Source: an uncultured archaeon (GTDB lineage Archaea; Thermoproteota; Nitrososphaeria; Nitrososphaerales; Gagatemarchaeaceae). Taken from it: a stretch of 64,000 bases of DNA. The translations under genes and the position numbers were made by a program. Position 1 is the first letter of the stretch, and every line of letters starts with the position of its first letter. Shown one piece after another: positions 3,257-61,503 of the stretch. The notes beneath the pieces are model-generated. The model was given only the letters and a program-made list of their open reading frames with translations. It was not told the origin of the DNA and ran no database searches. The stretch covers positions 608,001 to 672,000 of the forward strand of contig CAWFOU010000007.1 in the NCBI GenBank assembly GCA_963817525.1, in the 5' to 3' direction.

Positions 3257-4459
3257 ATGTACGACTTCGATGCCCTGGTGACCGAGGTCCTCCACAACAA
3301 GCCCGAGATGAGCCGTGACTCCCTGATGGAGCTGGTTAAGGAGAAGAAGCGGACCGTCGGTTCAGGGTACCTCACCGACCAGGGCGCGCTCTTCCTGGTG
3401 GCTGGAGAGCTGGGCGTCAAGCTCCAGCACATGATCAGCGCCGACCTGACGCTCAAGGACCTTCACATTGGGGCGAACGACATCACGGTTGTCGCGAGGG
3501 TCTTGGCGATATACCCCGTGTCAGAGTTCAAGAAGAAGGACGGGAGCGGCGTCGGGCGTTATAGGCGCGTGAATCTCTTCGACCGCAACGGCGTGGGCAG
3601 GCTCACCGTATGGGAGGACAATGAGGAGGCGATGAAGCTCGCCGGCATTGCGGTCGACGCGCCGGTGAGGGTGGTCAGCGCGTACGTCAAGCAGGGCCTA
3701 GACGGGAAGCCCACCCTGAACCTCGGCAAGAAGGGGAGGATCGAAGTAGTCGCGGACATCGCAATCTCGTCGAAGCTGGTGCCGCTCTCCGAGTTGACCA
3801 AGCAACTGGACCATGTCCAGGAGGGGGAGGTGGTGGTCGCCGTGGAGGGCGTGGCAGCTACAGATAGCAGGCGCTCGACGTTCGTCCGCCGCGACGACGG
3901 GTCCAACGGCTCGCTCACCCAGTTCGAGCTGAAGGGTCAGGACGGGAAGACCGCAAGGGTGGTCGTCTGGGACGGGGTCGACCTCCCCGAGGTGAAGTCA
4001 GGGAGGAGGGTCAGGGTCACCAACCTGAGGCAGAAGAAGGGGCGTCAGGGCGAGTCGGAGCTGCACGGGGACAGCGCCACATCGATACAAGCCTTAGACG
4101 GGCAGGAGGGGGCTTCGTCGACGGCGCACGTGGCTCGTCTCGTCAAGGTGGGGGACGTGGTCAAGCATGCCGCTGGCGGCAGCGTCGACCTGGAGGTGAT
4201 GGCGCTCTCCAAGGGCAGCGTGCGAGAGGTCAACCTCAAGGATGGCTCGACCGCGAGGAAAGGGGAGGTCGTCCTAGGGGACGACACGGGGGAGATCACG
4301 GCGGTGGCCTGGGATGATGCCTCCAACGTGATTGGGGGGATTCAGGCGGGCGAAAAACTGCGCGTCCAAGGGGCGACGGTCCAGCTTTCGAAGATGGGTG
4401 CTGAGACGCTCGAGCTGGGCAGGTCGTCCAAGGTGGAGCGGGTCTTGGGAAGGGCTTGA
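3257..4459 (+). CDS. RPA/SSB-type multi-OB-fold ssDNA-binding protein
   Basis: N-terminal GYLTDQGALFLVA motif and three OB folds (e.g. LGDDTGEITAVAW). Confidence 0.85.
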   Translation: MYDFDALVTEVLHNKPEMSRDSLMELVKEKKRTVGSGYLTDQGALFLVAGELGVKLQHMISADLTLKDLHIGANDITVVARVLAIYPVSEFKKKDGSGVGRYRRVNLFDRNGVGRLTVWEDNEEAMKLAGIAVDAPVRVVSAYVKQGLDGKPTLNLGKKGRIEVVADIAISSKLVPLSELTKQLDHVQEGEVVVAVEGVAATDSRRSTFVRRDDGSNGSLTQFELKGQDGKTARVVVWDGVDLPEVKSGRRVRVTNLRQKKGRQGESELHGDSATSIQALDGQEGASSTAHVARLVKVGDVVKHAAGGSVDLEVMALSKGSVREVNLKDGSTARKGEVVLGDDTGEITAVAWDDASNVIGGIQAGEKLRVQGATVQLSKMGAETLELGRSSKVERVLGRA

Positions 4460-15566: not shown

Positions 15567-17054
15567 ATGTCGACCGGAGACATGTCGCTGGCCGTCTCAA
15601 AGGCTCTGTCGCGCGGCTACCAGATAGACCCCGACGCCTTCACCTTCCTCTCGGAACTCTCTGGAAGAGAGAACGTCGAGCCGATCCTTAGGTCAATAAT
15701 CGAGAAGAAAGAGTCGTCAAACTCCGAGAGGCTGATAGTCAGGTCAGACTTCGACGACTTCCTCGCGAAGGATGAGGGGCAAAATCGCGTCGCCGTGGAC
15801 TCCCACGACTTGTTGGCCGACGTCGTCGTTGTGAGCAATCCCACGACAGAGATTCGGCCGGTGGAGGCGGAGAGCGGCTTCAAGAGGCTCTTCCAGGATA
15901 GGTACTCGCACCTCCTAGGCATAGCGAGGCAGAGACCCGACTCGAAGAGCGTCACGACGATTGAGTCTGGTAGGGAGACGCGAGACAAAGAATACAAGAT
16001 TGCGGGGCTCGTCTCCTCCAGGAACAGCAGGAAGGGCGGCGGAGTGGAGCTTGTGCTGGACGACCCCACAGGGAGCGCCAAGCTATACTGCTCGGACGAG
16101 GTCGCCAACTTGGCACTCGCCTTGCCTTTCGACAGTCTGGTTGTGGCCGAAGTGGCCCTCGGGAAAACCGGCCAGCTCTACGCGAGGGATTTGGTCCTTC
16201 CCGATATCCCGAGCAGGAAGTCGGTGGGCTCGCCGCGCAGGGTGTATGCGGTGATGCTTTCGGACTTGCATATCGGCAGCAAACTGTTTCTCGCCGAGGA
16301 TTTTGGGCGCTTCTTGGAGTGGCTCAACGGGAGATTGGGGGACCTTGATATCGTGGAGCGCATCAGGTACGTCATAGTGGCCGGAGACATCGTCGATGGA
16401 ATCGGCGTCTATCCTGGACAGGAGATGCAGCTCTCAGAGAGGAACTTGAGGGGTCAATACCGGGTCGCGAAGGCCTTTCTCGAACAGGTGCCGAAGCACA
16501 TGAAGCTCTTGATAGTTCCCGGGAACCATGATCCCGTGAGGCAGGCCCTCCCCCAGCCGGCTGTGCCCGCGGATGTGGCGACGCCCTTGTACGAGCTGGA
16601 GAATGCCGTGCATCTGGGAGGGCCGGCCAATGTCAAGCTCGACGGGGTGAACTTTTTAATTTATCACGGCAGGAGCCTGGATGACGTCATAGCCACTGTT
16701 CCCGACCTGACCTACGACAGGCCCGTGCAAGCGATGGAGGTCTTGCTCAAGGCGCGACATCTCGCACCCACCTATGGCAAGCGGACGGCATTGTCTCCGG
16801 AGCTCAGGGACATGTTGGTGATAGATCCCGTGCCGGATGTATTCCACGCAGGTCACGTGCACACGCTCGATGTGGGAAGCTACCGTGGCACGCTCGTGGT
16901 GAACTCGGGGACGTTCCAAGCCCAGACGCCTTTTCAAGCCAATATGGGTATAGACCCCATATGCTCGATTGTGCCGATACTGGACCTGTCTACCCTAGAG
17001 GTCGTCAAAAGGAGCTTCACAAAATCTAGTTTCCGAGAGCTACAGCAGGCCTAG
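15567..17054 (+). CDS. polB: DNA polymerase D small subunit DP1
   Basis: SDLHIGS, AGDIVDGIG, PGNHD, YHGRSLDD, RHLAPTYG, GHVH. Confidence 0.93.
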   Translation: MSTGDMSLAVSKALSRGYQIDPDAFTFLSELSGRENVEPILRSIIEKKESSNSERLIVRSDFDDFLAKDEGQNRVAVDSHDLLADVVVVSNPTTEIRPVEAESGFKRLFQDRYSHLLGIARQRPDSKSVTTIESGRETRDKEYKIAGLVSSRNSRKGGGVELVLDDPTGSAKLYCSDEVANLALALPFDSLVVAEVALGKTGQLYARDLVLPDIPSRKSVGSPRRVYAVMLSDLHIGSKLFLAEDFGRFLEWLNGRLGDLDIVERIRYVIVAGDIVDGIGVYPGQEMQLSERNLRGQYRVAKAFLEQVPKHMKLLIVPGNHDPVRQALPQPAVPADVATPLYELENAVHLGGPANVKLDGVNFLIYHGRSLDDVIATVPDLTYDRPVQAMEVLLKARHLAPTYGKRTALSPELRDMLVIDPVPDVFHAGHVHTLDVGSYRGTLVVNSGTFQAQTPFQANMGIDPICSIVPILDLSTLEVVKRSFTKSSFRELQQA

Positions 17055-18233
17055 AAGCTGCGAGTCCTCTGTGACCACCTTCGTCAGGGTATCGGCCTGA
17101 ATCAGGAGTTTGATTCTCTTGGTCCTTCCCCGTCTGCCCTTGCTCACCACGGCGGCCTCCACCAGGCCCAAAAGGTCGAGTTCGGCGAGTATCCCGCTGA
17201 CCCTTCTCTGGGTCAGCGCTTCGATACCCAGCCGGCGAGCCAGTCCCTCGTAGGCGACGTAGAGATCTCCGGTGTTCGTGCCGTCGGGGAACCTCGAGGC
17301 GGTCAGGAGGATGAGTTTGTTCTGGATGGGGAGTGAGCGCAGTGCGTCGTCAATCCTGTTGCTCTCGACCCTCTCCGACGCCTTGCGGATGCAGTCTTCG
17401 CTGACCTCGTGCTTGCCTTCCCTTTCCGCTATCTCTCCGGCCACGCGCAACAGGTCGACCGCCCGTCTGGCGTCGCCGTGTTCGGAGCCGGCCAAGGCCG
17501 CACAGAGGTTGAGCATCGCGTCGGGGATGACCCCGGGCCTGAACGCGATCTTTGCGCGGGCCGCCAAGATAGCGTAGAGCTCGTCCGTAGTGTATGGAGG
17601 GAATACCAGCTCTTCTTCGCCCAGGCTGCTCAGCACCCGGGGATCGAGTTCATCCTTGAACCTGAGATCGTTCGAGATTCCGACCATCGTGAAGAAGCCG
17701 GGCTCGACGTGCTCGCCGGCGCGGGTGAACTGGTAGAGGATGTCGTCGCCGTACGCGTTAACCAGATAGTCGATTTCGTCTAGGACTAGGATGAAATGGA
17801 TTTTGTTGCCCTTTATGGTGGTGAAGATGCGGTCGAGGACAGTCCCTATCGACAGGCCCGTCCCAGGAATCTTCTTGTCTTGCTCGAGGGGTAGGCAGTC
17901 GGCAATCTTCGCCAGAGTGCGATACTCGGTAGCGGCTATCCTGCTGTTCACATAGCAGGTGAGAATGTTCTTCGAGGCGTCCTGCGTGTGCAACCTGTCG
18001 ACGACCAGCCTTGCCACAGCGGTCTTCCCAGTTCCTGTCTTACCATAGAGGAGGAGATTCGATGGTTTCGAGCCATGGAGAGCGGGAGCCAGAATTTGCG
18101 CGACCTGCCTGGTCTGGCTCTCCCTGTAGGGTAGTTTCTCAGGCACATAGTCGGGCGACAGAGCATCACGGTTTTGAAACAGAGCTCGTCCTTCCTTGGC
18201 CCTCTGGAAGATCTCGTCTACTGCATCAACCAT
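17040..18233 (-). CDS. cdc6: Orc1/Cdc6 replication initiator
   Basis: GKTGTGKT, LDEID, GDARRAVDLLR, C-terminal wHTH SKGRRGRT. Confidence 0.95.
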   Translation of the reverse strand: MVDAVDEIFQRAKEGRALFQNRDALSPDYVPEKLPYRESQTRQVAQILAPALHGSKPSNLLLYGKTGTGKTAVARLVVDRLHTQDASKNILTCYVNSRIAATEYRTLAKIADCLPLEQDKKIPGTGLSIGTVLDRIFTTIKGNKIHFILVLDEIDYLVNAYGDDILYQFTRAGEHVEPGFFTMVGISNDLRFKDELDPRVLSSLGEEELVFPPYTTDELYAILAARAKIAFRPGVIPDAMLNLCAALAGSEHGDARRAVDLLRVAGEIAEREGKHEVSEDCIRKASERVESNRIDDALRSLPIQNKLILLTASRFPDGTNTGDLYVAYEGLARRLGIEALTQRRVSGILAELDLLGLVEAAVVSKGRRGRTKRIKLLIQADTLTKVVTEDSQLLGLL

Positions 18234-18705
18234 GTAGCATCAGTGGAAATATTGCTTTAATTAAGGGATGTCCCCCTCCGTTTCCACTGCAACTCGGTAA
18301 GAAGATGCTAGGTTCTAGCTATACTAAGTAAGAAGATGCTCGCTCTTGGTTCGAATGATTGCTTATTCTCACTGATTGACTAGCCGCCATGACAAATGGT
18401 CTAGAGACAGTGCAGAAGCGCGTGATTCACCCGGGGAGTCATCTCCACCGGAAATGTAGGGGTCCCTCCCCTAATGTGAACTTGATGTGAAACCTCCTTT
18501 GTAACGACGCATACAAGCTCACAGGTTGACGCACACCTAGCATTGACGTCGTTCACAGAAACTAGGTTGATTATAGCCCCTCTGTTTCCACTGGAACCAC
18601 TGTTCTGCCGGGCACCTGTCAACTACTGTGAACATCTGTGAATCACCATTTTCACCTCAGGGCGCGGTCAAACTTTGTTTGCACTCTGTTCACAACTTCA
18701 CACCA
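18234..18705. promoter_or_regulatory. Replication origin oriC with ORB elements at 18272-18293(-), 18442-18462(+), 18577-18597(-)
   Basis: GTTGCAGTGGAAACGGAGGGGG, TCTCCACCGGAAATGTAGGGG and GTTCCAGTGGAAACAGAGGGG match the archaeal ORB consensus with G-string; directly upstream of cdc6; mini-ORB near 18239. Confidence 0.88.
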
Positions 18706-45875: not shown

Positions 45876-47084
45876 ATGATACGAGCCTACTCATTTCGCT
45901 TTTACCCAACTTCAAAGCAATCTCAGAGGCTCGAAGAGACGCTTGAACTGTGCCGATTACTCTACAACGCCGCGCTAGAGCAACGCAGGTATGCCCGCGG
46001 CCTAGGGCAACCAATCTCCTACCACATCCAGCAAAACCAACTCCCCGAATTGCAGGAGGTACTGGAGGGGTTCAAGCAGGTTTACTCGCAAGTCTTGCAA
46101 AACGTGTTACGGAGGGTCGATTTTGCCTTCAAGAACTTCTTTGACAGGTGTTCGAGGAGAAAGAAAGGCGAGCGAATCAATGCCGGATATCCTAGATTCA
46201 AACCCTCCTGGAGATACAACTCGTTCACGTATCCGCAAGATGGCTTCAAGATACTGCCCTCCGGCCATATCTTGCTCTCGAAAATCGGAAAGCTGAGGGT
46301 CTTCATGCACAGGAGGATTGCGGGGGAAATCAAGACCCTCACTCTGAAGCGCGATCAAGTCGGAGACTGGTTTGTGGTAATCACTACTAGGCTTGCGGAA
46401 GTCCCACCAATTCAACCAACGTCTGCGCTAGGAGTCGACGTCGGCTTGAAAAGCCTGGTCACGTTGAGCTCCGGCGAACAAACAGAAGCACCGAAGTTCT
46501 TGAGAGTATCTGAACTGAAGTTGACTCGGGCCCAGAGAGCTTTCAGCCGCAAGCTTCCCGGATCTAACAATAGAAAGAAGGCCCGTCTCAAACTGGCCAA
46601 GATTCACAGGAAGATTGCACGACAAAGGGGCGACTTTCTGCACAAGCTTTCGAGGAATCTTGTCCGCAAGACCGACCTGCTGATTTTCGAAAACCTCCAC
46701 ATACCGAACATGACCAAGAACCAAAAGCTGGCGAAGTCAATACATGACGCTTCTTGGGGAACTTTGATTCGATACGCTTCTTACAAGGCTTCGAGCGCCG
46801 GTAGGAAAGTCGAGCAGATAGACCCGAGAGGCACAACGCAACGATGTTCAGGATGCAGAAGTAGCGTCAAGAAATCTCTGTCGGAGAGGGTTCATCGGTG
46901 TCCAATTTGTGGGCTCATCTTGGACAGGGACTTGAATGCGGCGCTTAACATCCTGGACGTAGGGAGGGGCACTCCCGAACTCAAGCCTGAGGAGACTCGG
47001 CCACCGCTTCCGATTTCCGGGAGCGAGCATCGAGTCGAGGAGGCAGGAAGCCCACGACTATTCGTGGGAGGATGTCACGAGTAG
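45876..47084 (+). CDS. tnpB: TnpB RNA-guided endonuclease (IS200/IS605 family), no tnpA
   Basis: RAYSFRFYP, LYNAAL, GYPRFK, RuvC GVDVG / IFENL / DRDLNAALNI, CSGC..CPIC. Confidence 0.95.
   Translation: MIRAYSFRFYPTSKQSQRLEETLELCRLLYNAALEQRRYARGLGQPISYHIQQNQLPELQEVLEGFKQVYSQVLQNVLRRVDFAFKNFFDRCSRRKKGERINAGYPRFKPSWRYNSFTYPQDGFKILPSGHILLSKIGKLRVFMHRRIAGEIKTLTLKRDQVGDWFVVITTRLAEVPPIQPTSALGVDVGLKSLVTLSSGEQTEAPKFLRVSELKLTRAQRAFSRKLPGSNNRKKARLKLAKIHRKIARQRGDFLHKLSRNLVRKTDLLIFENLHIPNMTKNQKLAKSIHDASWGTLIRYASYKASSAGRKVEQIDPRGTTQRCSGCRSSVKKSLSERVHRCPICGLILDRDLNAALNILDVGRGTPELKPEETRPPLPISGSEHRVEEAGSPRLFVGGCHE
47040..47078 (+). mobile_element. IS605-type right end / omegaRNA 3' scaffold: hairpin CCCACGA-CTAT-TCGTGGG, ending GGATGTCAC
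   Basis: GGAAGCCCACGACTATTCGTGGGAGGATGTCAC resembles IS605/IS1341 right ends. Confidence 0.75.
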
Positions 47085-48643: not shown

Positions 48644-49684
48644 CTAACCCGCTCGCCGCGGAATCTGGCCCACTGTGAGCTCGATCCACTTCGGCCTGTG
48701 CAAAAAGTCGTTCATCCCCCTCCCCTCGAGCAGCCCCACGAGCGCGTCCGCCTGAGGGATCGAGAGGACCGGCTTGCTGAAGGTGAAGCCGTCTATGGAG
48801 ATCCTCGGACAGGCGGTCTGGACGAAGGCCTCGATGTGCATGTACTGAGCGAGCCTGTCAGGCGTGATGTCCCGCATCGCGAGCTGGACCACCTTCTTCC
48901 CGTTGGCCTGAAGCCTGCTGGTGATCCATTTCGAGCGCCCTACCATCATCTGGCCCTCCTTCAGGCCGGTGACCACGCCGAAGACCTTCGCGTCGAGGGC
49001 CTTGTAGACGGCGAGTACCGCTCTCTTCTGCCTCTCCTCGGCCTCCTCCTTCATGTCGCGCATCTCCTCGAGGTACGGGTCGAGGAGGTAGGTCGGCTTC
49101 CCCGTCGCCAGCGCGACGCCCACGGCATGGAACTCGCTCTGTCCCAAGTAGCAGAACGCGTCGACCTGCTCTGTGTTCTCGAACACCGTCGAAAAGTCGC
49201 ACCCGAACGTCTGGCTCCCGAGGAGGAGGTTGTTCTTCCTGCCGAGGTGGACCTCGAACCCGGCCTCCTCGAGCTGCCTCTTCACGGGCCCGAGCTGGTC
49301 AAGGTGCTGGCTGAACGTGGCTAGCCCTATCCGCTTGTACTTTGAGAGCAGGGGAATCGACCTCTGGACGACCGCGTCGAACCTGATGTCGTCCTTTGCG
49401 TCCACCAGGTAAGTGTAGTCGCCGACCTCCAAGACGGAGGCGTTGTGCCCGATGTGCAAGGCGAGGCTGGCGCCGAGCCTCTCGACCTCGTTGTCCACGG
49501 TGTCGCATATCCCAAAGCAGCTGTCTCCGACCAGCACGCACTGGACGCCGTACTTGAGCTCGACGACCCGCATCAGCTCCATGGTCTGCCTCAGGAGGCC
49601 GCCGGGGGCGTTCAGGATTATCCTGGTCGGGTGCTTCTCCTCGATGAGGTTGAAGACCCGCTCTGTGTCGATCTTTACGGTCAA
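48644..49684 (-). CDS. dph2: Diphthamide biosynthesis protein Dph2
   Basis: CFGICD, GQ.FGCD, K.GQ, TACPRISID. Confidence 0.93.
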   Translation of the reverse strand: MTVKIDTERVFNLIEEKHPTRIILNAPGGLLRQTMELMRVVELKYGVQCVLVGDSCFGICDTVDNEVERLGASLALHIGHNASVLEVGDYTYLVDAKDDIRFDAVVQRSIPLLSKYKRIGLATFSQHLDQLGPVKRQLEEAGFEVHLGRKNNLLLGSQTFGCDFSTVFENTEQVDAFCYLGQSEFHAVGVALATGKPTYLLDPYLEEMRDMKEEAEERQKRAVLAVYKALDAKVFGVVTGLKEGQMMVGRSKWITSRLQANGKKVVQLAMRDITPDRLAQYMHIEAFVQTACPRISIDGFTFSKPVLSIPQADALVGLLEGRGMNDFLHRPKWIELTVGQIPRRAG

Positions 49685-50196
49685 GCAGGAACAGCCGCTT
49701 CTGTCTTCTTTAGCTGCGTGACGACTATCTTGTATGTGAACGGGAGCTTCGTGGTCGCCGCCTTCAGGGCCGCCTTGGCCTTCTCGAGGTTCTCCGCCTT
49801 GATCAGGATGTCCAGTATTACGCTGCCGATGTCGACTCGCGCCGCGACCCCTATAGGCTTCCCGAACGCCTTGCGCATCCCCTCCTGCAGCCTGTCCGCT
49901 CCTGCGGTGGCGATCATCTTGTTCTCGCGCATCACCACAAATGGGTACGAGACCACCCGAAGGTAGAACGCCTCCTCGCCGACGAGGGCGAGCTTCTTGC
50001 TCGCCGCGACCCTCGCCGCCTCTAGCGCGTTGCTCCTTATCTGGAGCCGGTTCAAGGAGACCAGCTCAAGCTTGTAATCGTAATCGGCGCTGAACTTGCC
50101 TGTGGTGAACCTCGCGACCTTGGGGTTGGGGGTGCCAGGTGCGAACTTCTTGTTGTAAAACATTGACTTCGCTTCGCGATAATTTGCTCCGTGGAC
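49681..50196 (-). CDS. rpl10e: Ribosomal protein L10e/uL16
   Basis: IRSNALEAAR, RENKMIATAGADRLQEGMRKAFGKP; N-terminus (V)HGANYR begins at GTC after SD GAGGTGA. Confidence 0.93.
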   Translation of the reverse strand, partial: VHGANYREAKSMFYNKKFAPGTPNPKVARFTTGKFSADYDYKLELVSLNRLQIRSNALEAARVAASKKLALVGEEAFYLRVVSYPFVVMRENKMIATAGADRLQEGMRKAFGKPIGVAARVDIGSVILDILIKAENLEKAKAALKAATTKLPFTYKIVVTQLKKTEAAVPA

Positions 50197-50445: not shown

Positions 50446-50517
50446 GTTCGGACGGCTCTGGTGCGTCTTAGGGAGATAGGCCCTCGAGAACTTATGGTGG
50501 TGCATCTCGGGAGATGG
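50446..50517 (+). repeat. 72-bp inverted repeat, left copy (partner 51226-51297)
   Basis: 66/72 identity to the reverse complement of 51226-51297, aligned by eye. Confidence 0.9.
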
Positions 50518-51225: not shown

Positions 51226-51297
51226 CCATCTCCCGAGTTGCACCAGCATAAGTTCTCGAGGGCCTATCTCCCGAAGACGCACTAGAGCCGTTCGGAC
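51226..51297 (-). repeat. 72-bp inverted repeat, right copy
   Basis: See 50446-50517. Confidence 0.9.
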
Positions 51298-52957: not shown

Positions 52958-54199
52958 TCAGGCCAAGTCAAATTCGCGTGTTTGTCGCTGCCCACCATCA
53001 TGAGGAGCCATCATCGGGTGCCTCCTTAACGGAAACTCATCAGGGGGCCAAATAACCGATGCGTAGAAACACCCTTTGCAGTATGCTTGCGCGTTGAAAA
53101 ACTCGAAGGCTCTTTGAGCTTCACGAAGCTTCTGGCCAACCAAGTAGGGCTGAATCTCCCTGAGAACGCGCAAGGCCCTGATCCCTGCGACGCCCTTCCT
53201 CCACAGCGGCTGCCAGCCGAGCGGCCTCTCCTTTGGCTTCTCCGGCCTCGGAAGCCCACATAAATCGGCAAATTGGAAGACCGGCTGCGGATCAGTCATC
53301 CTGAGATCCAAATCAACCGTAGTGGTGTCAAACTTCTTCAGGTAATGGGAGCCGATGCGAACCTCGCCCTGCACCAAGCCTCCTACCCATGCTCGATCAT
53401 CGTCCGATTGGATAACAACCTCGGGAACTTTCCACTGATTCATTAGGTCTGAGCTATTGCGAACTTCTGGCCATACACGTAATGCATCATTCCGGTCCCT
53501 CCTGACGAGGGAATGGAGAAGCGGGTGTTCGAGGTAATTCTGCGGTGTAGTCGTCTCGTCGGCGGCCATTCGTAATCCACCTCGTTTCTTGGTTCTCCAC
53601 GGAAATTCACCGCGCGACCAGATGTCGAGATTCCCGAAGCACCCTGAATGGCTCCCATATGGAGAGAAGAAAGACAACGCCTTTTCCGCTTCTTTCAGCT
53701 TCTCGCCAAGCAAGAAAGGCTGTAGCTCCTGCAGAACTCTGAAGGCCCGCAGGCCCGAGACGTTCTTGTGCCAGTTGGGCTTCCAATCATGATTCTTGAC
53801 TGGTTTTGACGGGTGCGACAGCCCGACGTAGTCAGAAAACTTGAAGACGGGCTCAGGGTCGGTCATCGAAACGTCGATGTTGAGGCAGGTCACATCGTAT
53901 CGCGTGTAGAATCTGGCTTGGATGCATCCTTCCGCTTGGGTCAGCCCTGCGACCCAGCGTCTACCTGTGGTCGTGGGGATAATCACTTGCGGAATGTTGC
54001 GCTGCATGATTTCTCGCATCTGTGGCCGCCTGGACCACTCGTGCGGCGACTCAATCGCGAAGCGTTTCATGTGATAACGGACCGTCCCGGGAGTCCGATA
54101 TCCCAGCCTGTCCGCTGCCTCCGCCAGGCCCTTGCTCGTCCTCACGACCTCTTCGAAATACGGTAGCCACTGCGGGCTCCCAAAGGGCGGCCGGGGCAT
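52958..54199 (-). CDS. HTH plus tandemly duplicated LAGLIDADG-like domain protein
   Basis: N-terminal LAEAADRLGY..GTVRYHMKR; two ~150-aa repeats (WVAGLTQAEG..MTDP..LQPFLLGEK and WVGGLVQGEV..MTDP..IQPYLVGQK). Confidence 0.75.
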   Translation of the reverse strand: MPRPPFGSPQWLPYFEEVVRTSKGLAEAADRLGYRTPGTVRYHMKRFAIESPHEWSRRPQMREIMQRNIPQVIIPTTTGRRWVAGLTQAEGCIQARFYTRYDVTCLNIDVSMTDPEPVFKFSDYVGLSHPSKPVKNHDWKPNWHKNVSGLRAFRVLQELQPFLLGEKLKEAEKALSFFSPYGSHSGCFGNLDIWSRGEFPWRTKKRGGLRMAADETTTPQNYLEHPLLHSLVRRDRNDALRVWPEVRNSSDLMNQWKVPEVVIQSDDDRAWVGGLVQGEVRIGSHYLKKFDTTTVDLDLRMTDPQPVFQFADLCGLPRPEKPKERPLGWQPLWRKGVAGIRALRVLREIQPYLVGQKLREAQRAFEFFNAQAYCKGCFYASVIWPPDEFPLRRHPMMAPHDGGQRQTREFDLA

Positions 54200-54639
54200 C
54201 AGCTAGCGCCTCCCAGCCTCGTTATGGCCGAGCCCAACTCATCGATCGAATACGCCACGCCGTCGGCGTGGGCCAGGACTTCGCGGAGCACCCTTGCGAG
54301 CGTGACGGGTTCCTCGTGGGGCGCCTCGGCGAGCGCGACGCAGCGGATCCCCGGGTGCGAGCCCTTCAGGCGTTTGAACTTCACGTCGATGAACGCGGCG
54401 TTCCTCTCCATCCAGCCCAGAGCGACCCCCCTCCTTCCGATGGTCTTCCAGCATTCTAGGACCGTCCTGCGGTCGCTCAGGAAAAAGTCCACCACGATCA
54501 GCCTGCCCCCGTTGGCGAAGACCGCGTGGGTGAGGTGGGTAAGGCCCAGCTCGAGGAGGAGGTCGCGGACCTGCCTTTCCTGCTCCGTGAGGGGTATCAG
54601 GGCGTGCGCTCGGGTCATCCATTTTGAAGACGGGTTCAT
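54199..54639 (-). CDS. PD-(D/E)xK/Vsr-like nuclease-fold protein
   Basis: QERQVRDLL..LG...IVVDFFL...VLECW; TGATG overlap with the LAGLIDADG gene. Confidence 0.6.
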   Translation of the reverse strand: MNPSSKWMTRAHALIPLTEQERQVRDLLLELGLTHLTHAVFANGGRLIVVDFFLSDRRTVLECWKTIGRRGVALGWMERNAAFIDVKFKRLKGSHPGIRCVALAEAPHEEPVTLARVLREVLAHADGVAYSIDELGSAITRLGGAS

Positions 54640-54779: not shown

Positions 54780-57579
54780 TTGAGTCCGAGGCTCGCGGAG
54801 CCCGCCCCACTTGCAAAGACCGAGTTCCTTACTGTTGATCAGAGAGGCTCTTGGAGCCCCGCCCAAGTCGCCGACAGAATCTACGACAGTTCGCGCACCT
54901 ACAGGAAAGAGCATTGCGCCATCTTCATCGACCCAGACTCGGTCGATGACTTTCTCCACGCCTCAGGTCTACAAGTGGACTTTCTAGACCCAGACGAAAA
55001 CTCGCACTGGACGGGAGTGCAAAGACCAGTCCACCCGAAGCTGAAGCCCATTCTGGTTGGAGACTATGATGAGTGGTTTCGCTGGTTCATGAAGTGGCAG
55101 AGGTTCAACGCTTTCCACATCATCGTCCTCATCAACCCAATCCGGAGGATGATTGATGACGACAGGAGGGGGTACTATGACGGCCTCCTCACGCGCCTGC
55201 TCAACAAGCAAGGCGTCCACAGAATCATCATTGTCGAAGAGGAGCGCTTCCAGCCGACGCTCAGAAGATGGATGGGCGGCGCCGTCCCCGGTGAGGAGGA
55301 CCAAGAGCTCAAGGCGAAGTTCGGGCAGAAGCAGTTCAGGGATGCGATATGCTCCATTCTCTATGGCACGCTCCTCTCCAACAGAAACCTCTCTGCTGCT
55401 GCCGCGAGTACCTTGTTCTCGAAGGTGAACCCAGCCTGGGAGCCGGCGCTCCAGGACCTGAAGCGCAAGGCTTTCCAGGTCGCAAGGACGCACCGCTGGT
55501 TCTACTCACTGGGGGACTATGGGAAGGAGATAGTCGAGGGCCTCGAGACGCCGGCGGTTCGGAAAACACTCGAGGATCCGCAGCAGTCGATTCCACCCCT
55601 GTTCAAGAGGAGAGGCAAGAGGTGCCCCTCGGAGCTCAACCAGGAATGGCTCGAGGGCCTCACGCAGTCCCTCCTTGACTCCCAAGGCTGGTTCACGGTC
55701 GCGGGCCTCTACCAGCACGTCGACGCCCAGACGCAGAGGGTGATCCAGACGTCAGGTTATCGCCCCCAGATTTTCAACGATCACTTTGACGACGAGCTGC
55801 CTAGCGAGATGCATGTCTGGGCGCCGAGTCGCCCACTCCTGCGTGGCATCGCCGAGAGGCTCGCGCAGGAGGGGAAGCTGCAGAAGGCCACCTGGGTAAG
55901 GGAGATCGGGCGGCCCACCACCGTCTATCACCTGCCAGGACAGCTGCCGTTCGACGCCAAGAACCGGTGCGGGCAGTGCGCTTTCTACGTCCCCTTGAGG
56001 CGCCAGTGCAGAATCTGGTGGCTCCTCGACAAGTCCTACGGCTCCAGATACGAAAGGTGGGGGAGGGATGGGGCTCGCCCGCTCTCGGGCTTCGAGATTC
56101 ACAAGATGAGGAACTCCTGGCGCATAGGCCCACATTCGTCCGCGTGCTCGAAGTTCGTCGACAAGAAGAAGGACTACAGCCGGCTCTCACTCCCCGAGCT
56201 CTGCGACGTGTGCCAAGAACGGCTTCCCGAGACGCCGCCAAAGTGGTCGATGGTGGTCTGCGGCACCTGCAGGACCCGATACTTCAGGCTCAGGCAAGGC
56301 AAGGTGAAGGTGCTCACGAGCTACGAGCACGAGTTCGAGAAGCGCTACCACGAGCTGGCGGGCGTAGACCGAGCATCGGACATTAAGCGCCTGATTGAGG
56401 AAAGGCAGGGCTCTGCGGGAAGCATCGTGGAGCAGGCCATATTCGACGAGCGCCGCCACGCGGGCGTCGACGACCCAGACTCTGCCCCCAAGACGGTGAT
56501 GCTGTTCCCCGGCGACAGGATGCTCGCGAGGGACGGGAGGCTCTACGTCTTCAAGAGGCGCAATGTGGAGTCGCTCCCCCTCGCGGGCAGCACAATAATC
56601 GACCACGGCGGCGTGGTGAACGAGGAGCAGAGGGGCGCCCTAGAGAGCGCCGGGACGACCGTGAGGTCAATCTCGAAGTCACCGGGTCTCAACAGCACCG
56701 GAGGGCCTCCGCCAAAGAGGTACGACATCGCCCCCGCCGTGGATAAGGTGGTCGGCGAGTACCCGGAGTTCCTGCGCCGGATGTCCCTCGCGATGGTCCA
56801 GAGCTCGATTCACGCCACGGAGCGCGTCGGCTCCCTCGCCCACATGTCGGAGGACGACGTGCAGACCTTCACCAGAAAGCAAAGGATGTACGCGCGACGT
56901 CTCGAGCGCGCGCCTCCAACCAGGTTCTTGGTCTATGAGGCCCTATCCATGAAGGAGTACTGGAACTGCTACTACCTGGTGCTCAAGGGCGCGTTTCAGA
57001 GGTTCGGCCCGCGCAAGAAGGCCCGGTTCGTGAGGGAGTTCGTCACAAACCCCGCGGGGAGGGCAAGGGGCTACACCGCGGTTGACGCGGCGATAAACTA
57101 CCTTCACCAGAGGAGATTCTTCAAGGCGAGGGCGGTCAACGTCCAGCTCGGCCTCGATTTCAACCCGGGAGAGGGATTCCTCCACAGGAAGAGGTGGAAC
57201 CCCGAAGGCCTCGGGCTGATCTTTGACCTCATCGACCCCTTCAAGTTCGCCGACAGAGAGAAGCTGCTCGGGGCCATCCTGGACGTCAGCGTGAACTGGA
57301 GGGACTTTTACGGCGCGACCGACAGGTCCGGGGCGCGGTTCTACTACCCAAAAGCCGGAGGCCATCGGTGTCCTCGAAGCGGTTGGCGAGGCGGCAGACA
57401 ATATGCCTGTGAATTACCAAGGAGAGAAAATTACGCTCGTAGAGGCTTACCGAAACGCCGTCTTGAGGCTAATCCAGAACCTGCAAGGCGGCACGCCAGC
57501 CTCATTCACACCCTTCGTCTTCCAAGGGTCAAATTCAGCGCTCAAGAGGAATGGAACGCCCCAGGCGGAGGCGCAATGA
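54780..57579 (+). CDS. cas1: Large Cas1-fusion protein (~932 aa after correcting one extra A at 57350-57353)
   Basis: Cas1 beta domain from 56490 (VMLFPGDRMLARDGRLYV..SLPL..VV....LESAG.TV); helical domain YEALSMKEYW, DAAINYL, GLDFNPGEGFLH, LIFDLIDPFK. A Cas1-like tail (VNYQGEKITL..LIQNL.G..FTPF) lies in the +1 frame. Confidence 0.82.
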
Positions 57580-57586
57580 ACCCAAG
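57555..57586 (+). repeat. Direct repeat R1, containing the corrected cas1 stop
   Basis: AACGCCCCAGGCGGAGGCGCAATGAACCCAAG; 28/33 aligned columns match R3. Confidence 0.7.
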
Positions 57587-57759
57587 CACGGCGATGCCCT
57601 GCAACTTCATTTTAGCGAAACATAGTGGAGCTCTTGGAGTTGGATTGGAGAGTACACCTTTCCGCGCCTTGTATGAATCGTTACAGAGAAATTTTCGGGG
57701 GGGGGGAAATAGTGGAAAATCCCATCAATGGATATAGTTAGCCCTTTATTCTCGGAGGT

Positions 57760-59649
57760 ATGGCGCCCGCGTCTCCTCTAGCCTCTATGCTGCATATCCA
57801 TGGAGAAAAAGTAAACCGGGTCTCAAAGGCAGTCCTACTATTGGCCCTACTGGCCGTCGCAGCGGTGTTTCTGATTTCCCCCGCTTCGGTAAACGCGGAG
57901 AGCGTGGGGACATGGAACCAGACCACCAGCTTCCCTGTTGCTGGTACCTCCTGCACCGCATACGCCGGGTACGCTTACTGCGTCGATGGCCAATATTCCT
58001 ACTACGGCCAGCTCACATCGTCAGGCATCGCTTCCTGGACGGCCACCACCAGCTATCCGGACACTGTAGACGCGGACCAGACGTGCGCCGCATCAGCAGG
58101 ATACATCTATTGCGTTGGGGGGACACCCACCTCAGGCGGCTCCGCTCCCAGCGATTACGCGTATTATGCTACCGCTACTGCATCTGGGATAGGGGCCTGG
58201 ATCGAGACCTCTGACTATCCGACCTTCATAACCGGTGTCTCATGCGTGATCTCGGCAGGATACATCTACTGCGCGGGAGGCGAGACGGGCGATGGCACCT
58301 TACAAACAGGCTTCGCCGCGTACGCGCCGGTCTCCTCGTCAGGCATCGGGACGTGGACGACCACCACTACGTATCCCCACCAAGTAGTTTCCCCCAACTG
58401 CGTGACTTCGAGTAGATACATCTACTGCGCCGGCGGGATGGGGGTCGTAGACGTCGGCCCCGAAAATACGACCGCTTACGCCGCCCTCTCCTCCTCGGGA
58501 ATAGGTCCTTGGACCGAGGGCCCACTCTATCCGTCGACGATCAGCGGATATGGGGAGTCGCCTTATTCCTGTGTCGCGTCGGACGGCTACATGTACTGCA
58601 TCGGCGCATACAGTTCCTATGAGAGCTCACCTGAGGTCAACTACGCCTCGCTCTCCTCGTCCGGAATCGGGGCATGGACGGCCACGACCGCCTATCCAGG
58701 CACTTCGTCGAGTGGTGACACATGCACTTCATCGGGCGGCTACATCTATTGCGTGGGAGGCGACGGAAGCACCTCTTCAAGTGCCACAGTCTATTACGCT
58801 CAGATAACCGCACCCCCATCTTCGCAGCTGACTGTGACAAGCCAGGACACCAGCGGCAACACGATAAGCGGCTACTACACAGTGCTCAATCAGAGCAACG
58901 CTATTGTGGCCTCAGGATTCACGCCGTACACATTCACTCTGAACGACGGCCAAACCTATACGGTGCAAGTCGACAACTATGGCTCCTGCACGTTCTCGCA
59001 TTGGCTCGACACGGGAAGCACGACGTCAAGCAGGACGGTGTCCATCACCAGCAACACCCAGTACACGGCCGTGTACAGCTGCGCTTCGAGCAGCGGCGGC
59101 CCGTCGAGCGTGACCGTGGACACGGTCAACCAGGATGGCGGCGCGATCACCGGCTACAACATCGCGCTCTATGGGTCGGGTGGTAATTTCATCTCTAGCG
59201 GGTTCTCGCCGGCGAGCTTCAGCACGACCGCGGGCGAGGGGTACGAGCTTGTGGCGGACAGCTACGGGAGCTGCACCTTCAGCCAGTGGTCAAACGGCGC
59301 GAGCGACCCGATGTCCTTCACCGCGACGAGCTCGGCGCAGACTTTCACTGCGGTCTACAACTGCACCAGCACGAACGAGTCCACCATCAACGTCTCCACG
59401 GTGAACTCGTCCGGCACTCCGATCAGCGGATACTACATCACCCTCTGGCAGGATGGCGCTCAGCTTGGGAGCTGCTTCTCCGCCTGCTCGTTCACCGTGG
59501 ACGGCGGACAGTCTTACCAGGTCTTGGCCGACTCCTATGGCTCCGAGACGTTCAGCCACTGGCAGAACGACGGTTCAACGGGCTACGAGACGGTCATGGT
59601 CCCGATCAGCAGCACGACGATCGACCTGACAGCGGTCTACAGTCCATAG
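57760..59649 (+). CDS. Secreted surface protein: ~6 Kelch-like beta-propeller repeats plus 3 beta-sandwich repeats
   Basis: Signal peptide; repeats C...GYIYC.GG / SSSGIG.WT.TT.YP; C-terminal repeats GF.P..FT..GQ.Y.V..D.YG..F.HW. Confidence 0.85.
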   Translation: MAPASPLASMLHIHGEKVNRVSKAVLLLALLAVAAVFLISPASVNAESVGTWNQTTSFPVAGTSCTAYAGYAYCVDGQYSYYGQLTSSGIASWTATTSYPDTVDADQTCAASAGYIYCVGGTPTSGGSAPSDYAYYATATASGIGAWIETSDYPTFITGVSCVISAGYIYCAGGETGDGTLQTGFAAYAPVSSSGIGTWTTTTTYPHQVVSPNCVTSSRYIYCAGGMGVVDVGPENTTAYAALSSSGIGPWTEGPLYPSTISGYGESPYSCVASDGYMYCIGAYSSYESSPEVNYASLSSSGIGAWTATTAYPGTSSSGDTCTSSGGYIYCVGGDGSTSSSATVYYAQITAPPSSQLTVTSQDTSGNTISGYYTVLNQSNAIVASGFTPYTFTLNDGQTYTVQVDNYGSCTFSHWLDTGSTTSSRTVSITSNTQYTAVYSCASSSGGPSSVTVDTVNQDGGAITGYNIALYGSGGNFISSGFSPASFSTTAGEGYELVADSYGSCTFSQWSNGASDPMSFTATSSAQTFTAVYNCTSTNESTINVSTVNSSGTPISGYYITLWQDGAQLGSCFSACSFTVDGGQSYQVLADSYGSETFSHWQNDGSTGYETVMVPISSTTIDLTAVYSP

Positions 59650-59681
59650 CGGAAGAAGAAGCAGCCGCACGCGGAGGTGGT

Positions 59682-59722
59682 CCCCCGGCGGGCCAATGAA
59701 CCCAGCCAATCTTTAGTTAGCG
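59682..59722 (+). repeat. Degenerate direct repeat R2
   Basis: CCCCCGGCGGGCCAATGAACCCAG matches R1 at 22/26 columns; the following AATCTTTAGTTAGCG matches the R3 flank AAGCCTTAATTAGCG (12/15). Confidence 0.55.
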
Positions 59723-59770: not shown

Positions 59771-60121
59771 TTGGACAGCCGACGGAGCTGGGCAATAATT
59801 GGAGCAAACCTAGACAAACTCGTGGCCGTGATGCTGACCGTTCAGAAGGGAGCTTCGGTCGATGTCTTTTGCGATCCGACGGGAGCGAATCTATCCGTCG
59901 GCAGACCGTCCGGCGCGGCGAACATCAAACTCTGCGCAGTTAACGCCCCCGACCTCGAGGGTGGCTACGGTGTGAAATCACGTGGTGACGGATTCACGAA
60001 TGACGACGGGGAGGAGATTTCAAAGGAACAATTGCCAGCCTACTTGGTGCGGTACATCACAGGGGCGAAGGATGGAGGCGCGGAATGGGGCTGGGAGTTC
60101 AAGTTGAGCGGCGACGGGTGA
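59771..60121 (+). CDS. Hypothetical protein (~116 aa)
   Basis: ORF between R2 and R3 with protein-like composition; TATA-like element upstream. Confidence 0.5.
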   Translation: MDSRRSWAIIGANLDKLVAVMLTVQKGASVDVFCDPTGANLSVGRPSGAANIKLCAVNAPDLEGGYGVKSRGDGFTNDDGEEISKEQLPAYLVRYITGAKDGGAEWGWEFKLSGDG

Positions 60122-60241
60122 TGGTGCAGCTATCTGCTGCATATTTGGCCCGAAACGACGCCAGTTAACAACACGTACAGTTACCGTGTCGGACGAATGG
60201 GGCAGGCTGTCGTGCTTCACTTCACCATGACCAACTGATCA

Positions 60242-60273
60242 AATGCCCCGGCGGAGGCGCAACTAACCCGAAG
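60242..60273 (+). repeat. Direct repeat R3, just upstream of the methyltransferase promoter
   Basis: AATGCCCCGGCGGAGGCGCAACTAACCCGAAG. Confidence 0.7.
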
Positions 60274-60315: not shown

Positions 60316-61503
60316 TTGCCGTTCCTAGTCCCTCCGGAGAGCATCGAGTCCGAGTCCCTCATCCTGGTGCTCGCGTTTGGGCAGCCCTCGTTGCTCGAGG
60401 CGCAGTGCGTGTTCGGGGAGAGCGCCAGGGTCTCTATGCGCTGCGACGACATTGCGATAGCCGACTTGAACGGCGGCCGGTTCAAAAAGTACACCGAGCT
60501 CGCGGGGGTGCACAAGATCGCCCTCCCCCTACCCCCCGTCGACTCCTCCGGCTTCGCCGAGGCGATCACCTTCCCCGAGAGGAACTTCAACTTCTCCCTG
60601 AGCCTCTACTGCTCAGCCGGCGACCAGGAGGCGAAATATGAGGAGCTCTCCGAGGAGCTCCTCTTGCGGATACGCGAGTTCGGCCACAAGAAGGCGAACC
60701 TCCTCCGCTCGCGCTCGGGGCCCGAGCTATTTTCGGAGCGGGTGGTGTCTAGGTCCGCGATGGATTTTGTGGTCTTCCCCCTCGGGGCGGTGTCCCAGTG
60801 GGGAGTCACGGTCTACGTGCCGGAGACAGAGCAGTTCAAGGAGCGGTCGACGGAGAGGCCGTACGTCACCTCCGGGATCTCGCTCTCCTCCCGCCTGGCG
60901 CGCCTACTGGTCAACATCTCCGGGGTCTCCAAGGGCCAAGTCCTGCTGGACCCGTTCTGCGGCTCTGGGACCATCCTCGGCGAGGCGCTGCTGAAGGGGG
61001 CCGACTGCATCGGGGTCGACAGGAACCACGGAAGCGTCGAGCGGACCAAGGAGAACCTGGCGTGGGTCCTCTCACAGAGCAAACGAGGCGGACATGTCCC
61101 CTCCTACTCCGTGGTCACCGGCGACGCCATGAACCTGAGAAGGTCGCTCGGCGACCGGACGGTGGACGCCATAGTCTCAGAGCCTATCCTGATGCCGAGA
61201 CTCTCCTCTCCCCCCACCCTCGAGAAGGCGCGCCGCCTCATCAAGCACGCCTCCATCATCTACTCGGAGGCCCTTTACGAGATGAGCGAGGTCTTGCGAC
61301 GCGGCGGAAGGATGGTCCTCGTCACGCCCTCGCTTAGGACGGTGGAGGGGAAGGACGTCGCCCTGTCTTTCGAGGACCTCAGGGAGGTCGGGCTGAGGCC
61401 AATCCAGCCGCCAGGCGGCCCCTCCTACGAGTATCCTCTGAAGGTGTCGCACCAGAGCACGAGGTGGGTCAGGAGGGCGGTGTATGCCCTGGAGCGCGCC
61501 TAG
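60316..61503 (+). CDS. Trm11/TrmG10-like SAM-dependent RNA methyltransferase
   Basis: RLARLLVNIS, LLDPFCGSGTI, DAIVSEP. Confidence 0.85.
   Translation: MPFLVPPESIESESLILVLAFGQPSLLEAQCVFGESARVSMRCDDIAIADLNGGRFKKYTELAGVHKIALPLPPVDSSGFAEAITFPERNFNFSLSLYCSAGDQEAKYEELSEELLLRIREFGHKKANLLRSRSGPELFSERVVSRSAMDFVVFPLGAVSQWGVTVYVPETEQFKERSTERPYVTSGISLSSRLARLLVNISGVSKGQVLLDPFCGSGTILGEALLKGADCIGVDRNHGSVERTKENLAWVLSQSKRGGHVPSYSVVTGDAMNLRRSLGDRTVDAIVSEPILMPRLSSPPTLEKARRLIKHASIIYSEALYEMSEVLRRGGRMVLVTPSLRTVEGKDVALSFEDLREVGLRPIQPPGGPSYEYPLKVSHQSTRWVRRAVYALERA

Follow-up and report, generated by a model that had tools for sequence, protein, structure and literature searches.

Two roles of Cas1 are known: as the partner of Cas2 in CRISPR adaptation, and as the casposase of elements that encode PolB. 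A third Cas1 way of life is hinted at by the aCas1 proteins of Asgard archaea, whose homologues and subfamilies were reportedly defined by Makarova in 2020. These CRISPR-less Asgard homologues have been suggested to serve novel mobile elements as transposases (PMC10691335, PMC8730458), and the former report also proposes that loci combining aCas1 with TnpB are transposons (PMC10691335). No report of an experimental test of an Asgard aCas1 was found in the literature searched.

The gene considered here lies in a 64,000-nucleotide stretch of DNA from an uncultured archaeon (the window, meaning the whole stretch analyzed), and its features are listed in Table 1. The original prediction had read it as one 932-aa protein ending in a complete Cas1. 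Two frames were silently joined in that protein: the open reading frame from 54780 ends at 57737 (985 aa), its tail after residue ~857 (FYYPK) is unrelated to Cas1, and the true C-terminus is encoded in the shifted frame. Completeness stood in part, as the whole Cas1 fold is found in the model of an intact orthologue but the window copy is frameshifted. The predicted residue positions were exact (E720 in YEAL, H802 in GFLH, D816 and D819 in DLIDPF, GRPTTVY at 377, CGQC at 397, CDVC at 475, CGTC at 494). Two Logan contigs, record 8 of X1 (57197-57763) and record 16 of X2 (57157-57935), span the frameshift site with no indel; both come from one study and one is possibly from the source sample. 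On these contigs an assembly error was rejected as the cause, and the frameshift is therefore probably a real event. At 57697, the G run in both contigs is shorter by one base. The shifted tail still has a dN/dS of 0.08-0.10, which argues that the event was recent, and the window's Cas1 copy has probably been inactivated only recently. Programmed -1 frameshifting was rejected, since a slippery-heptamer-like sequence is present but a +1 shift would be required and the orthologues are in frame. Intact orthologues of 889-921 aa were found at L001, L003, L040, L044, L045 and L049.

Table 1. Features of the Cas1 locus and its flanks, in window coordinates.
Feature	Position	Strand	Evidence
rpl10e, host gene bounding the variable island on the left	49681..50163	-	Pfam L16/L10e
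Variable third gene, 413 aa, tandem HTH and LAGLIDADG-like	52958..54199	-	Atlas neighbors; invariant QxEG
Constant head-to-head partner, 146 aa, PD-(D/E)xK (restriction-endonuclease-like) fold	54199..54639	-	Model and VIA
Large Cas1-family gene, in-frame part	54780..57350	+	Residues 1-857; putative TTG start
Hel308/Ski2-like helicase-derived region	54792..55547	+	VIA on orthologue model; no ATPase motifs
Winged HTH ending GRPTTVY	55632..55934	+	Model secondary structure; weak profile match; HTH matches in short forms
Two four-cysteine clusters	55968..56270	+	C397/C400/C410/C456 and C475..C497 zinc ribbon; predicted metal sites
Cas1 domain: beta domain and most of helical domain	56490..57350	+	E720, H802, D816, D819; profile and structure alignments
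One-base insertion (A run), frame shift	57349..57352	+	One continuous frame in orthologues; same letters on two contigs
True Cas1 C-terminal helices, shifted frame	57352..57579	+	49-74% identical to orthologue C-termini; stop inside repeat
23S rRNA 3'-flank / bulge-helix-bulge repeat copy	57549..57600	+	nhmmer E 2e-7; overlaps true Cas1 stop
Cargo cassette: secreted kelch-like repeat protein, 629 aa	57760..59649	+	Pfam Kelch_1 E 1e-4; repeat copies both sides
Degenerate repeat copy	59662..59704	+	E 0.35, weak
Cargo cassette: 116-aa ORF	59771..60121	+	No family match
Repeat copy just before trm11-like gene	60229..60273	+	E 8e-8; same position in L001, L002, L057, L148
trm11-like methyltransferase, host gene bounding the island on the right	60316..61503	+	Pfam UPF0020 E 7e-17

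The protein modeled was the intact L001 orthologue (921 aa, 75% identical to the window protein; 62-row alignment), and the AlphaFold model had a pLDDT of 89.4 and a pTM of 0.86. The Foldseek check proposed with the original prediction, together with VIA, returned a two-domain Cas1 fold at its C-terminal part: residues 568-913 aligned with A. fulgidus Cas1 (VIA Z 23.5, rmsd 6.9, 309 aligned) and residues 627-916 with the casposase (VIA Z 22.0, rmsd 2.8, 250 aligned), while Foldseek matched Cas1 structures at E 4e-9. The best PDB sequence match of the 62-row family profile was the M. mazei casposase 6OPM (E 8e-8). Single-sequence searches gave weak Cas1 matches (TIGR00287, E 0.043; PADLOC Cas1, E 0.002) and no Pfam Cas1 match. 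The predicted E/H/D/D(E) metal site is conserved in the 62-row alignment (E in 49/52, H in 46/53, D in 50/50, D or E in 51/52), and E720, H802 and D819 correspond in the family profile alignment to casposase active-site residues E162, H232 and E247, numbered per PMC6977970 after an inferred 17-residue offset. Judged by fold and active-site residues, family members are predicted to be catalytically complete, and we infer an integrase activity for the Cas1 module.

The helicase-derived, wHTH and Cys-cluster domains that had been predicted N-terminal to Cas1 proved real and conserved in the family alignment and the orthologue model. L001 residues 5-253 aligned with Hel308 (2va8; VIA Z 14.8, rmsd 3.5, 220 aligned) and with Hjm (Z 13.9), and the aligned range suggests a first RecA-like domain joined to a winged helix. 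Neither a Walker A nor a DExH motif was found in the N-terminal part, and the Hel308-like piece is missing from 545-aa forms of the protein in two genomes (G699, G704). The middle region, barely probed by the fold search and with nothing above 0.8 in the ESM Atlas, was assigned from a weak family profile match of the wHTH region (2d1h, E 0.079), from MarR/IclR HTH Pfam matches at the equivalent N-terminus of the two short forms (E down to 1e-7), and from the near-invariant cysteines, each kept in 46-47 of the 46-48 rows of the 62-row alignment with a residue there.

A search of 1.84 billion representatives gave 106 matches, including forms of 780-1240 aa. Of ten matches checked, four fall in clusters whose names are Hel-, Heimdall- or Promethearchaeota, and proteins of these groups have the same wHTH-Cys-Zn-Cas1 core. 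Within one Nitrososphaerota family, which we take to be the Gagatemarchaeaceae, the gene was found in 21 of 97 genomes (E below 1e-6; a single query also gave 21/97), and in none of the 389 genomes of the class's other families. Members also occur in another Thermoproteota class, and the nearest named record is from Nitrososphaerota. A Cas1-domain tree of 50 rows, with 13 family rows removed by a motif filter and no Cas1-solo group 1, split 27 family rows from 23 other Cas1 rows at 100/100. Among the other rows, two casposase-like proteins have neighboring PolB-motif ORFs and five proteins lie next to CRISPR arrays; three casposase-like rows clustered with the non-family Cas1, and Asgard-labeled proteins fell within the family clade, on long branches. 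The phylogeny suggested with the original prediction thus returned a clade apart from both CRISPR Cas1 and casposases, and since that clade has Asgard relatives the family probably belongs to the published aCas1 radiation. Values of dN/dS of 0.15-0.25 across 15 pairs indicated that all domains are under purifying selection. In quick trees (14 marker rows), the phylogeny of the main Cas1 subtype agreed broadly with that of host trm11, and movement would therefore be slow and could be passive.

Neither Cas2 nor Cas4 had a match in the window's genome (95% complete), and no CRISPR array was found there, the sole script candidate being a tandem coding repeat. At 44 family loci no CRISPR array was found by the same script, which was positive at five control Cas1 loci, and no PolB-motif ORF was found, a looser motif being positive beside two control casposases. 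The PolD genes in the window are host genes. The statement that cas2, cas4, an array and PolB are absent around the gene was borne out genome-wide for the first three and, through the comparison of homolog neighborhoods, in the 44 loci for array and PolB; together with the separate clade, this agrees with the claim that the gene fits neither CRISPR Cas1 nor a casposase. Self-BLAST at 26 modules gave no terminal inverted repeats or target duplications, save a 23S repeat in L002, and this search, with comparison of the 3' flanks, could overlook short or eroded ends.

The integrase had been described as stand-alone, and this did not hold: a PD-(D/E)xK-fold partner was observed head-to-head at 31 of 31 Cas1 gene starts with enough flank (from 41 loci, excluding duplicates and short loci), two genomes of another class among them, and a third gene follows. 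The partner gene is present in 24 of the 97 family genomes and in 19 of the 21 that carry Cas1, and is under purifying selection. Its model (pLDDT 90) had nuclease-fold entries at the top VIA ranks (Can2, Z 11.5, rmsd 3.2, 121 aligned; PspGI, 11.4; XisH-like, 10.5; I-Bth0305I, 8.9), with residues E21, D51 and E62 invariant and the canonical catalytic Lys not conserved. The third gene had LAGLIDADG clusters as ESM Atlas neighbors (score 0.90), only I-HjeMI in the PDB (E about 1) and no Pfam match. It is split in two in L001 and L002, and at other loci it is replaced by other LAGLIDADG genes, TnpB (2 of 24 loci, L043 and L050), HNH-like genes (by eye) or unknown genes.

The rpl10e-trm11 gap that holds the island in the window measures ~110-210 bp in L053, L063 and L065, which we regard as near-empty sites. 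A probable replication origin lies ~36 kb from the window's Cas1, as judged by cdc6, ORB-like repeats (by eye) and a GC-skew switch. By gene neighborhood, Cas1 was observed at seven or more different intergenic sites, mostly in the core-gene region around the origin, and a single genome has as many as three or four divergent copies. No near-identical copies were found within any genome; the two copies of G431, 12 kb apart, are 73% identical. Cas1 is present on contig C2 and missing at the matching position of the related C7. The module is kept while flanking cargo turns over, and among close orthologues sequence divergence begins directly past the stop codon. Two junctions could be read: that of L040, at the SRP54 5' end, resembles recombination or replacement, and in C2 1 kb of a host gene was replaced, as placed by a 39-bp anchor. 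The duplicated SRP54 start in L040 was rejected as a target duplication, its two copies being merely 76% alike. Seven 3'-only remnants and broken frames in 9 of 31 genes were also observed; the window's frame alone was checked, and breaks elsewhere are possibly long-read errors. Viral contigs gave no relative of the Cas1 protein, and two exact motif matches in them came without an array.

Among described systems the likeness is greatest to aCas1, with which the family shares a highly diverged, CRISPR-less Cas1, accessory nucleases nearby and, in the Asgard proteins, the wHTH-Cys-Zn-Cas1 core. It differs in its hosts, Nitrososphaerota and another Thermoproteota class, and perhaps in the constant divergent PD-(D/E)xK partner; it differs from aCas1-TnpB loci in having no TnpB at the window's module, TnpB as a minority third gene and no flanking repeats of the reported kind. 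Casposons (PMC4046053, PMC6977970) likewise combine the Cas1 fold and active site with an extra DNA-binding domain and accessory nucleases in the absence of Cas2 or an array, whereas this family has no PolB, TIRs or fixed TSD, and carries its HTH N-terminally where casposases have it C-terminally. CRISPR adaptation Cas1 and its fusions (Cas4-Cas1, RT-Cas1) share the fold, catalytic residues and N-terminal fusions, and the PD-(D/E)xK helper recalls Cas4, but the family lacks Cas2, Cas4, array and effector genes. Cas1-solo group 1 of Methanomicrobiales is also CRISPR-less and PolB-less, and according to PMC4046053 it is without a full active site, unlike the family. The system had been put forward as undescribed, which is doubtful. 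The helicase-fused architecture was indeed not found in the literature searched, which excluded Makarova 2020, the likeliest source, and the accessible text of PMC8813620 does not mention Cas1; the core, however, is present in Asgard proteins, and aCas1 had already been proposed as transposases.

A repeat of ~30-50 bp overlaps the Cas1 stop in the window and recurs twice before trm11 (one match, E 0.5, in a reversed-genome control). It corresponds to what directly follows the 23S rRNA end: the Rfam model stops ~10 nt before the repeat core in G000 and five other array heads, and by BLAST the 23S end coincides with the first repeat copy in 10 of 10 genomes whose head was examined. Co-folded with the ITS, the repeat gave a 4-bp helix between 3-nt bulges in 6 of 6 operons, and such a bulge-helix-bulge motif is the cut site of the archaeal splicing endonuclease in pre-rRNA (PMC7714728). 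The repeat pattern was found in 77 of the 97 family genomes, controls giving two matches in all. A class-wide search, with at most 2 matches per genome outside the family, was uninformative because the 23S flanks of other families differ; a 23S-end duplication was also sought in 18 kb of G120, and none was found.

Behind the 23S gene the copies form same-strand arrays of 10 copies in G000, 31 in G425 (59 kb) and 32 in G429 (44 kb), the longest being those of G427 (35 copies, 102 kb) and G426 (39 copies, 126 kb). Gene-listed stretches have one to a few cargo genes between copies, many membrane or secreted by eye. The carried 23S piece measured 0 to 78 nt among 101 internal copies, some copies end inside the core, and for 14 of the 32 long copies the better fit was to the 23S head of another genome. 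The high conservation of the core in this comparison is partly imposed by the search pattern. A fixed 14-bp target duplication was rejected, as neither boundary is constant and both cut into the core. Repeated insertion, with the essential gene end duplicated each time, is the simplest model; every copy would then have served as the working head at some time. Integrons, and tandem islands at tRNA and rRNA 3' ends, also consist of same-strand cassettes of 1-3 genes separated by a site that seemingly travels with the cassette. The arrays, whose heads abut the 23S rRNA, differ in that the site is a strand of the 23S processing stem and not attC, boundaries vary, and no recombinase gene was seen at the array heads, where the adjacent ORFs tested (L069:5618, L071:16950) had no Pfam recombinase match. 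No description of 23S-anchored cassette arrays was found in the literature searched. Arrays of tens of cassettes represent genome plasticity on an integron scale and are worth study whichever enzyme builds them.

We tentatively read the locus as a semi-resident Cas1 integrase module of two to three genes, compact, without PolB and of the aCas1 kind, a reading that in our judgment falls a little short of an even chance. The module would comprise a variable endonuclease-like gene and the PD-(D/E)xK gene on one strand, with the helicase-piece/wHTH/Cys4/Zn-ribbon/Cas1 gene diverging from them, and it would be a long-term resident of one archaeal family that relocates rarely and mostly to intergenic sites in the core-gene region around the origin. 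Cas1 would join DNA 3' ends to a target by transesterification, and the partner nuclease, much like TnsA or Cas4, may free or trim those ends. Binding of ends or target could fall to the wHTH and metal clusters in place of the casposase HTH or Cas2, the ATPase-dead Hel308 piece may assist by binding branched DNA or a protein, and the third gene may be a replaceable nuclease for drive or targeting. What was observed directly is the fold, the catalytic residues, the pairing of the genes, the purifying selection and the several loci per genome. The intact fold and active site, the casposase as best sequence match, the constant partner, the patchy distribution, the multiple divergent copies and sites, the G431 pair, the C2/C7 difference, the near-empty sites and the remnants and broken frames all favor this reading, and third genes of LAGLIDADG and TnpB types echo the aCas1-TnpB loci (PMC10691335). 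Against it count the missing element ends, the divergence directly past the stop, the two junctions, which look like replacement or donor recombination and not clean transposition, the agreement with the trm11 tree, the lack of near-identical copies and of a viral relative, and the partner's missing Lys. A domesticated host nuclease pair, acting in non-programmable defense or branched-DNA repair and spread passively by the family's high recombination traffic, would account for several of these points, namely the host-tree congruence and missing ends, and also for the purifying selection and the retention of the module despite cargo turnover. Hachiman, a Ski2-type helicase plus nuclease, is a loose parallel; the HamAB structure is a further match of the N-terminus (Z 12.9), and L151 lies between BilC/BilD and HamB genes. 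That is, however, the single locus shown to be a defense island, the others having mostly core informational or membrane genes (by eye), the helicase piece lacks ATPase motifs and is dispensed with in the short forms, and it is more typically selfish elements that have multiple copies and exchangeable third genes of the homing type, so that we consider a host role doubtful. The family has the practical merit that, because many intact, predictedly complete members, a constant partner and a minimal 545-aa form exist, the function of a CRISPR-less, PolB-less Cas1 is directly testable.

It seems very improbable that the gene is a relic in decay that no longer functions in any of these genomes: the window frameshift and the broken frames and remnants elsewhere fit such decay, but the dN/dS values, the conserved catalytic and Cys residues and the many intact copies largely refute it for the family, and it holds for the window copy alone. 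A further proposal, which we rate as unlikely, is that Cas1 and its nuclease partner build the arrays by inserting gene-sized DNA at the 23S rRNA 3' end with duplication of the bulge-helix-bulge strand. The arrays would then be CRISPR-like, with tens of whole-gene spacers and junctions possibly cut by the tRNA splicing endonuclease, and would persist after the integrase is lost. A parallel is offered by casposases, which likewise target the 3' ends of RNA genes (PMC6977970). Of 38 Cas1 3' ends, 7, the window's included, have a repeat no more than 150 bp away, and a weaker copy overlaps the L055 stop; genomes with Cas1 had a median of 13 repeats versus 2 without (genus-stratified permutation, p 0.0012). 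This link is a correlation with counter-examples, since the well-assembled G425 (one contig), G430 and G432 have 35, 14 and 18 copies and no Cas1 match. Among well-assembled genomes of that genus the difference was not significant (6 vs 3, p 0.22), and genome size confounds the comparison, the Cas1-bearing genomes being larger. Cas1 was observed at none of five array heads with listed genes, 31 of the 38 Cas1 3' ends have no repeat, and a passenger cassette would likewise be repeat-bordered. The variable boundaries that cut the core and the foreign-type copies are unlike a Cas1 ruler or fixed duplication. Six tyrosine recombinases in the window's genome are alternative candidates, and G001, from a family without this Cas1, carries a 197-bp duplicate of its own 23S end.

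Gene-cassette arrays of 10-39 cassettes each were observed starting directly 3' of the 23S rRNA gene in five genomes, including that of the window (G000), and the 3' bulge-helix-bulge strand was present at every cassette junction. Further satellite arrays were found at other genomic places. These 23S-anchored arrays merit study irrespective of Cas1. In the arrays of two genomes (loci L069 and L071) a multi-gene element was observed as one cassette, with ORFs for an ATPase, an exonuclease-like protein and unknown products; no recombinase match was found for this element at either locus. The 23S genes of L069, L071, L072 and L074 were 3.7-5.1 kb in length with ORFs lying within them, and two of the four had group I intron matches. 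The 23S end was also duplicated in G001, a genome of another family without this Cas1, as a 197-bp copy (99.5%) 2.3 kb downstream.

A second module was observed in G000 on contig C2 (L012), intact and 28% identical, in place of roughly 1 kb of a gene for an HTH regulator. Part of contig C2 shares 95-97% identity with C7:522-531 kb of the same genome, and C2 probably represents a related strain. Subtype swapping was observed in L049, L061 and L149-L151, with B-type partner genes beside an A-type Cas1. Synonymous divergence in the window Cas1 gene differs strongly from domain to domain, which suggests that this gene is a mosaic. Defence genes, BilC/BilD-like and HamB-like, were observed on the flanks of the L151 module.

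Within the window, cdc6/orc1 is flanked by PolD genes, the adjoining spacer holds ORB-like repeats, and the GC-skew switch is also found here, making this region a probable replication origin. A solo TnpB (IS605 OrfB) lies between the gene following priS and an RNA polymerase subunit M-like gene, and no TnpB was observed at the matching position in loci L002 and L003. Inverted repeats of 72 bp (92%) enclose a gene for a 200-aa membrane protein, possibly as a MITE-like element, and related copies were also found on contigs C1 and C13. At the G run at window position 57697, the contigs of two runs had one G fewer than the window, whose extra G is likely an assembly error. The tRNA-Pyl(CTA) called by ARAGORN is probably a mis-called intron-containing tRNA.

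Locations of the arrays and other features
Feature	Genome	Location
23S array	G000	C7:561.9-574.2 kb (L068)
23S array	G425	C1:1.533-1.592 Mb
23S array	G426	C8
23S array	G427	C9
23S array	G429	C3:1.867-1.911 Mb
Multi-gene cassette element		L069:1391-6748; L071:16947-19689
Duplicated 23S end	G001	L138:1286-1482 and 3581-3777
Second module	G000	C2:334-5041
cdc6/orc1	G000	window 17043-18675
Solo TnpB	G000	window 45876-47084
72-bp inverted repeats	G000	window 50446-50517 and 51226-51297
tRNA-Pyl(CTA) call	G000	C7:727580-727673
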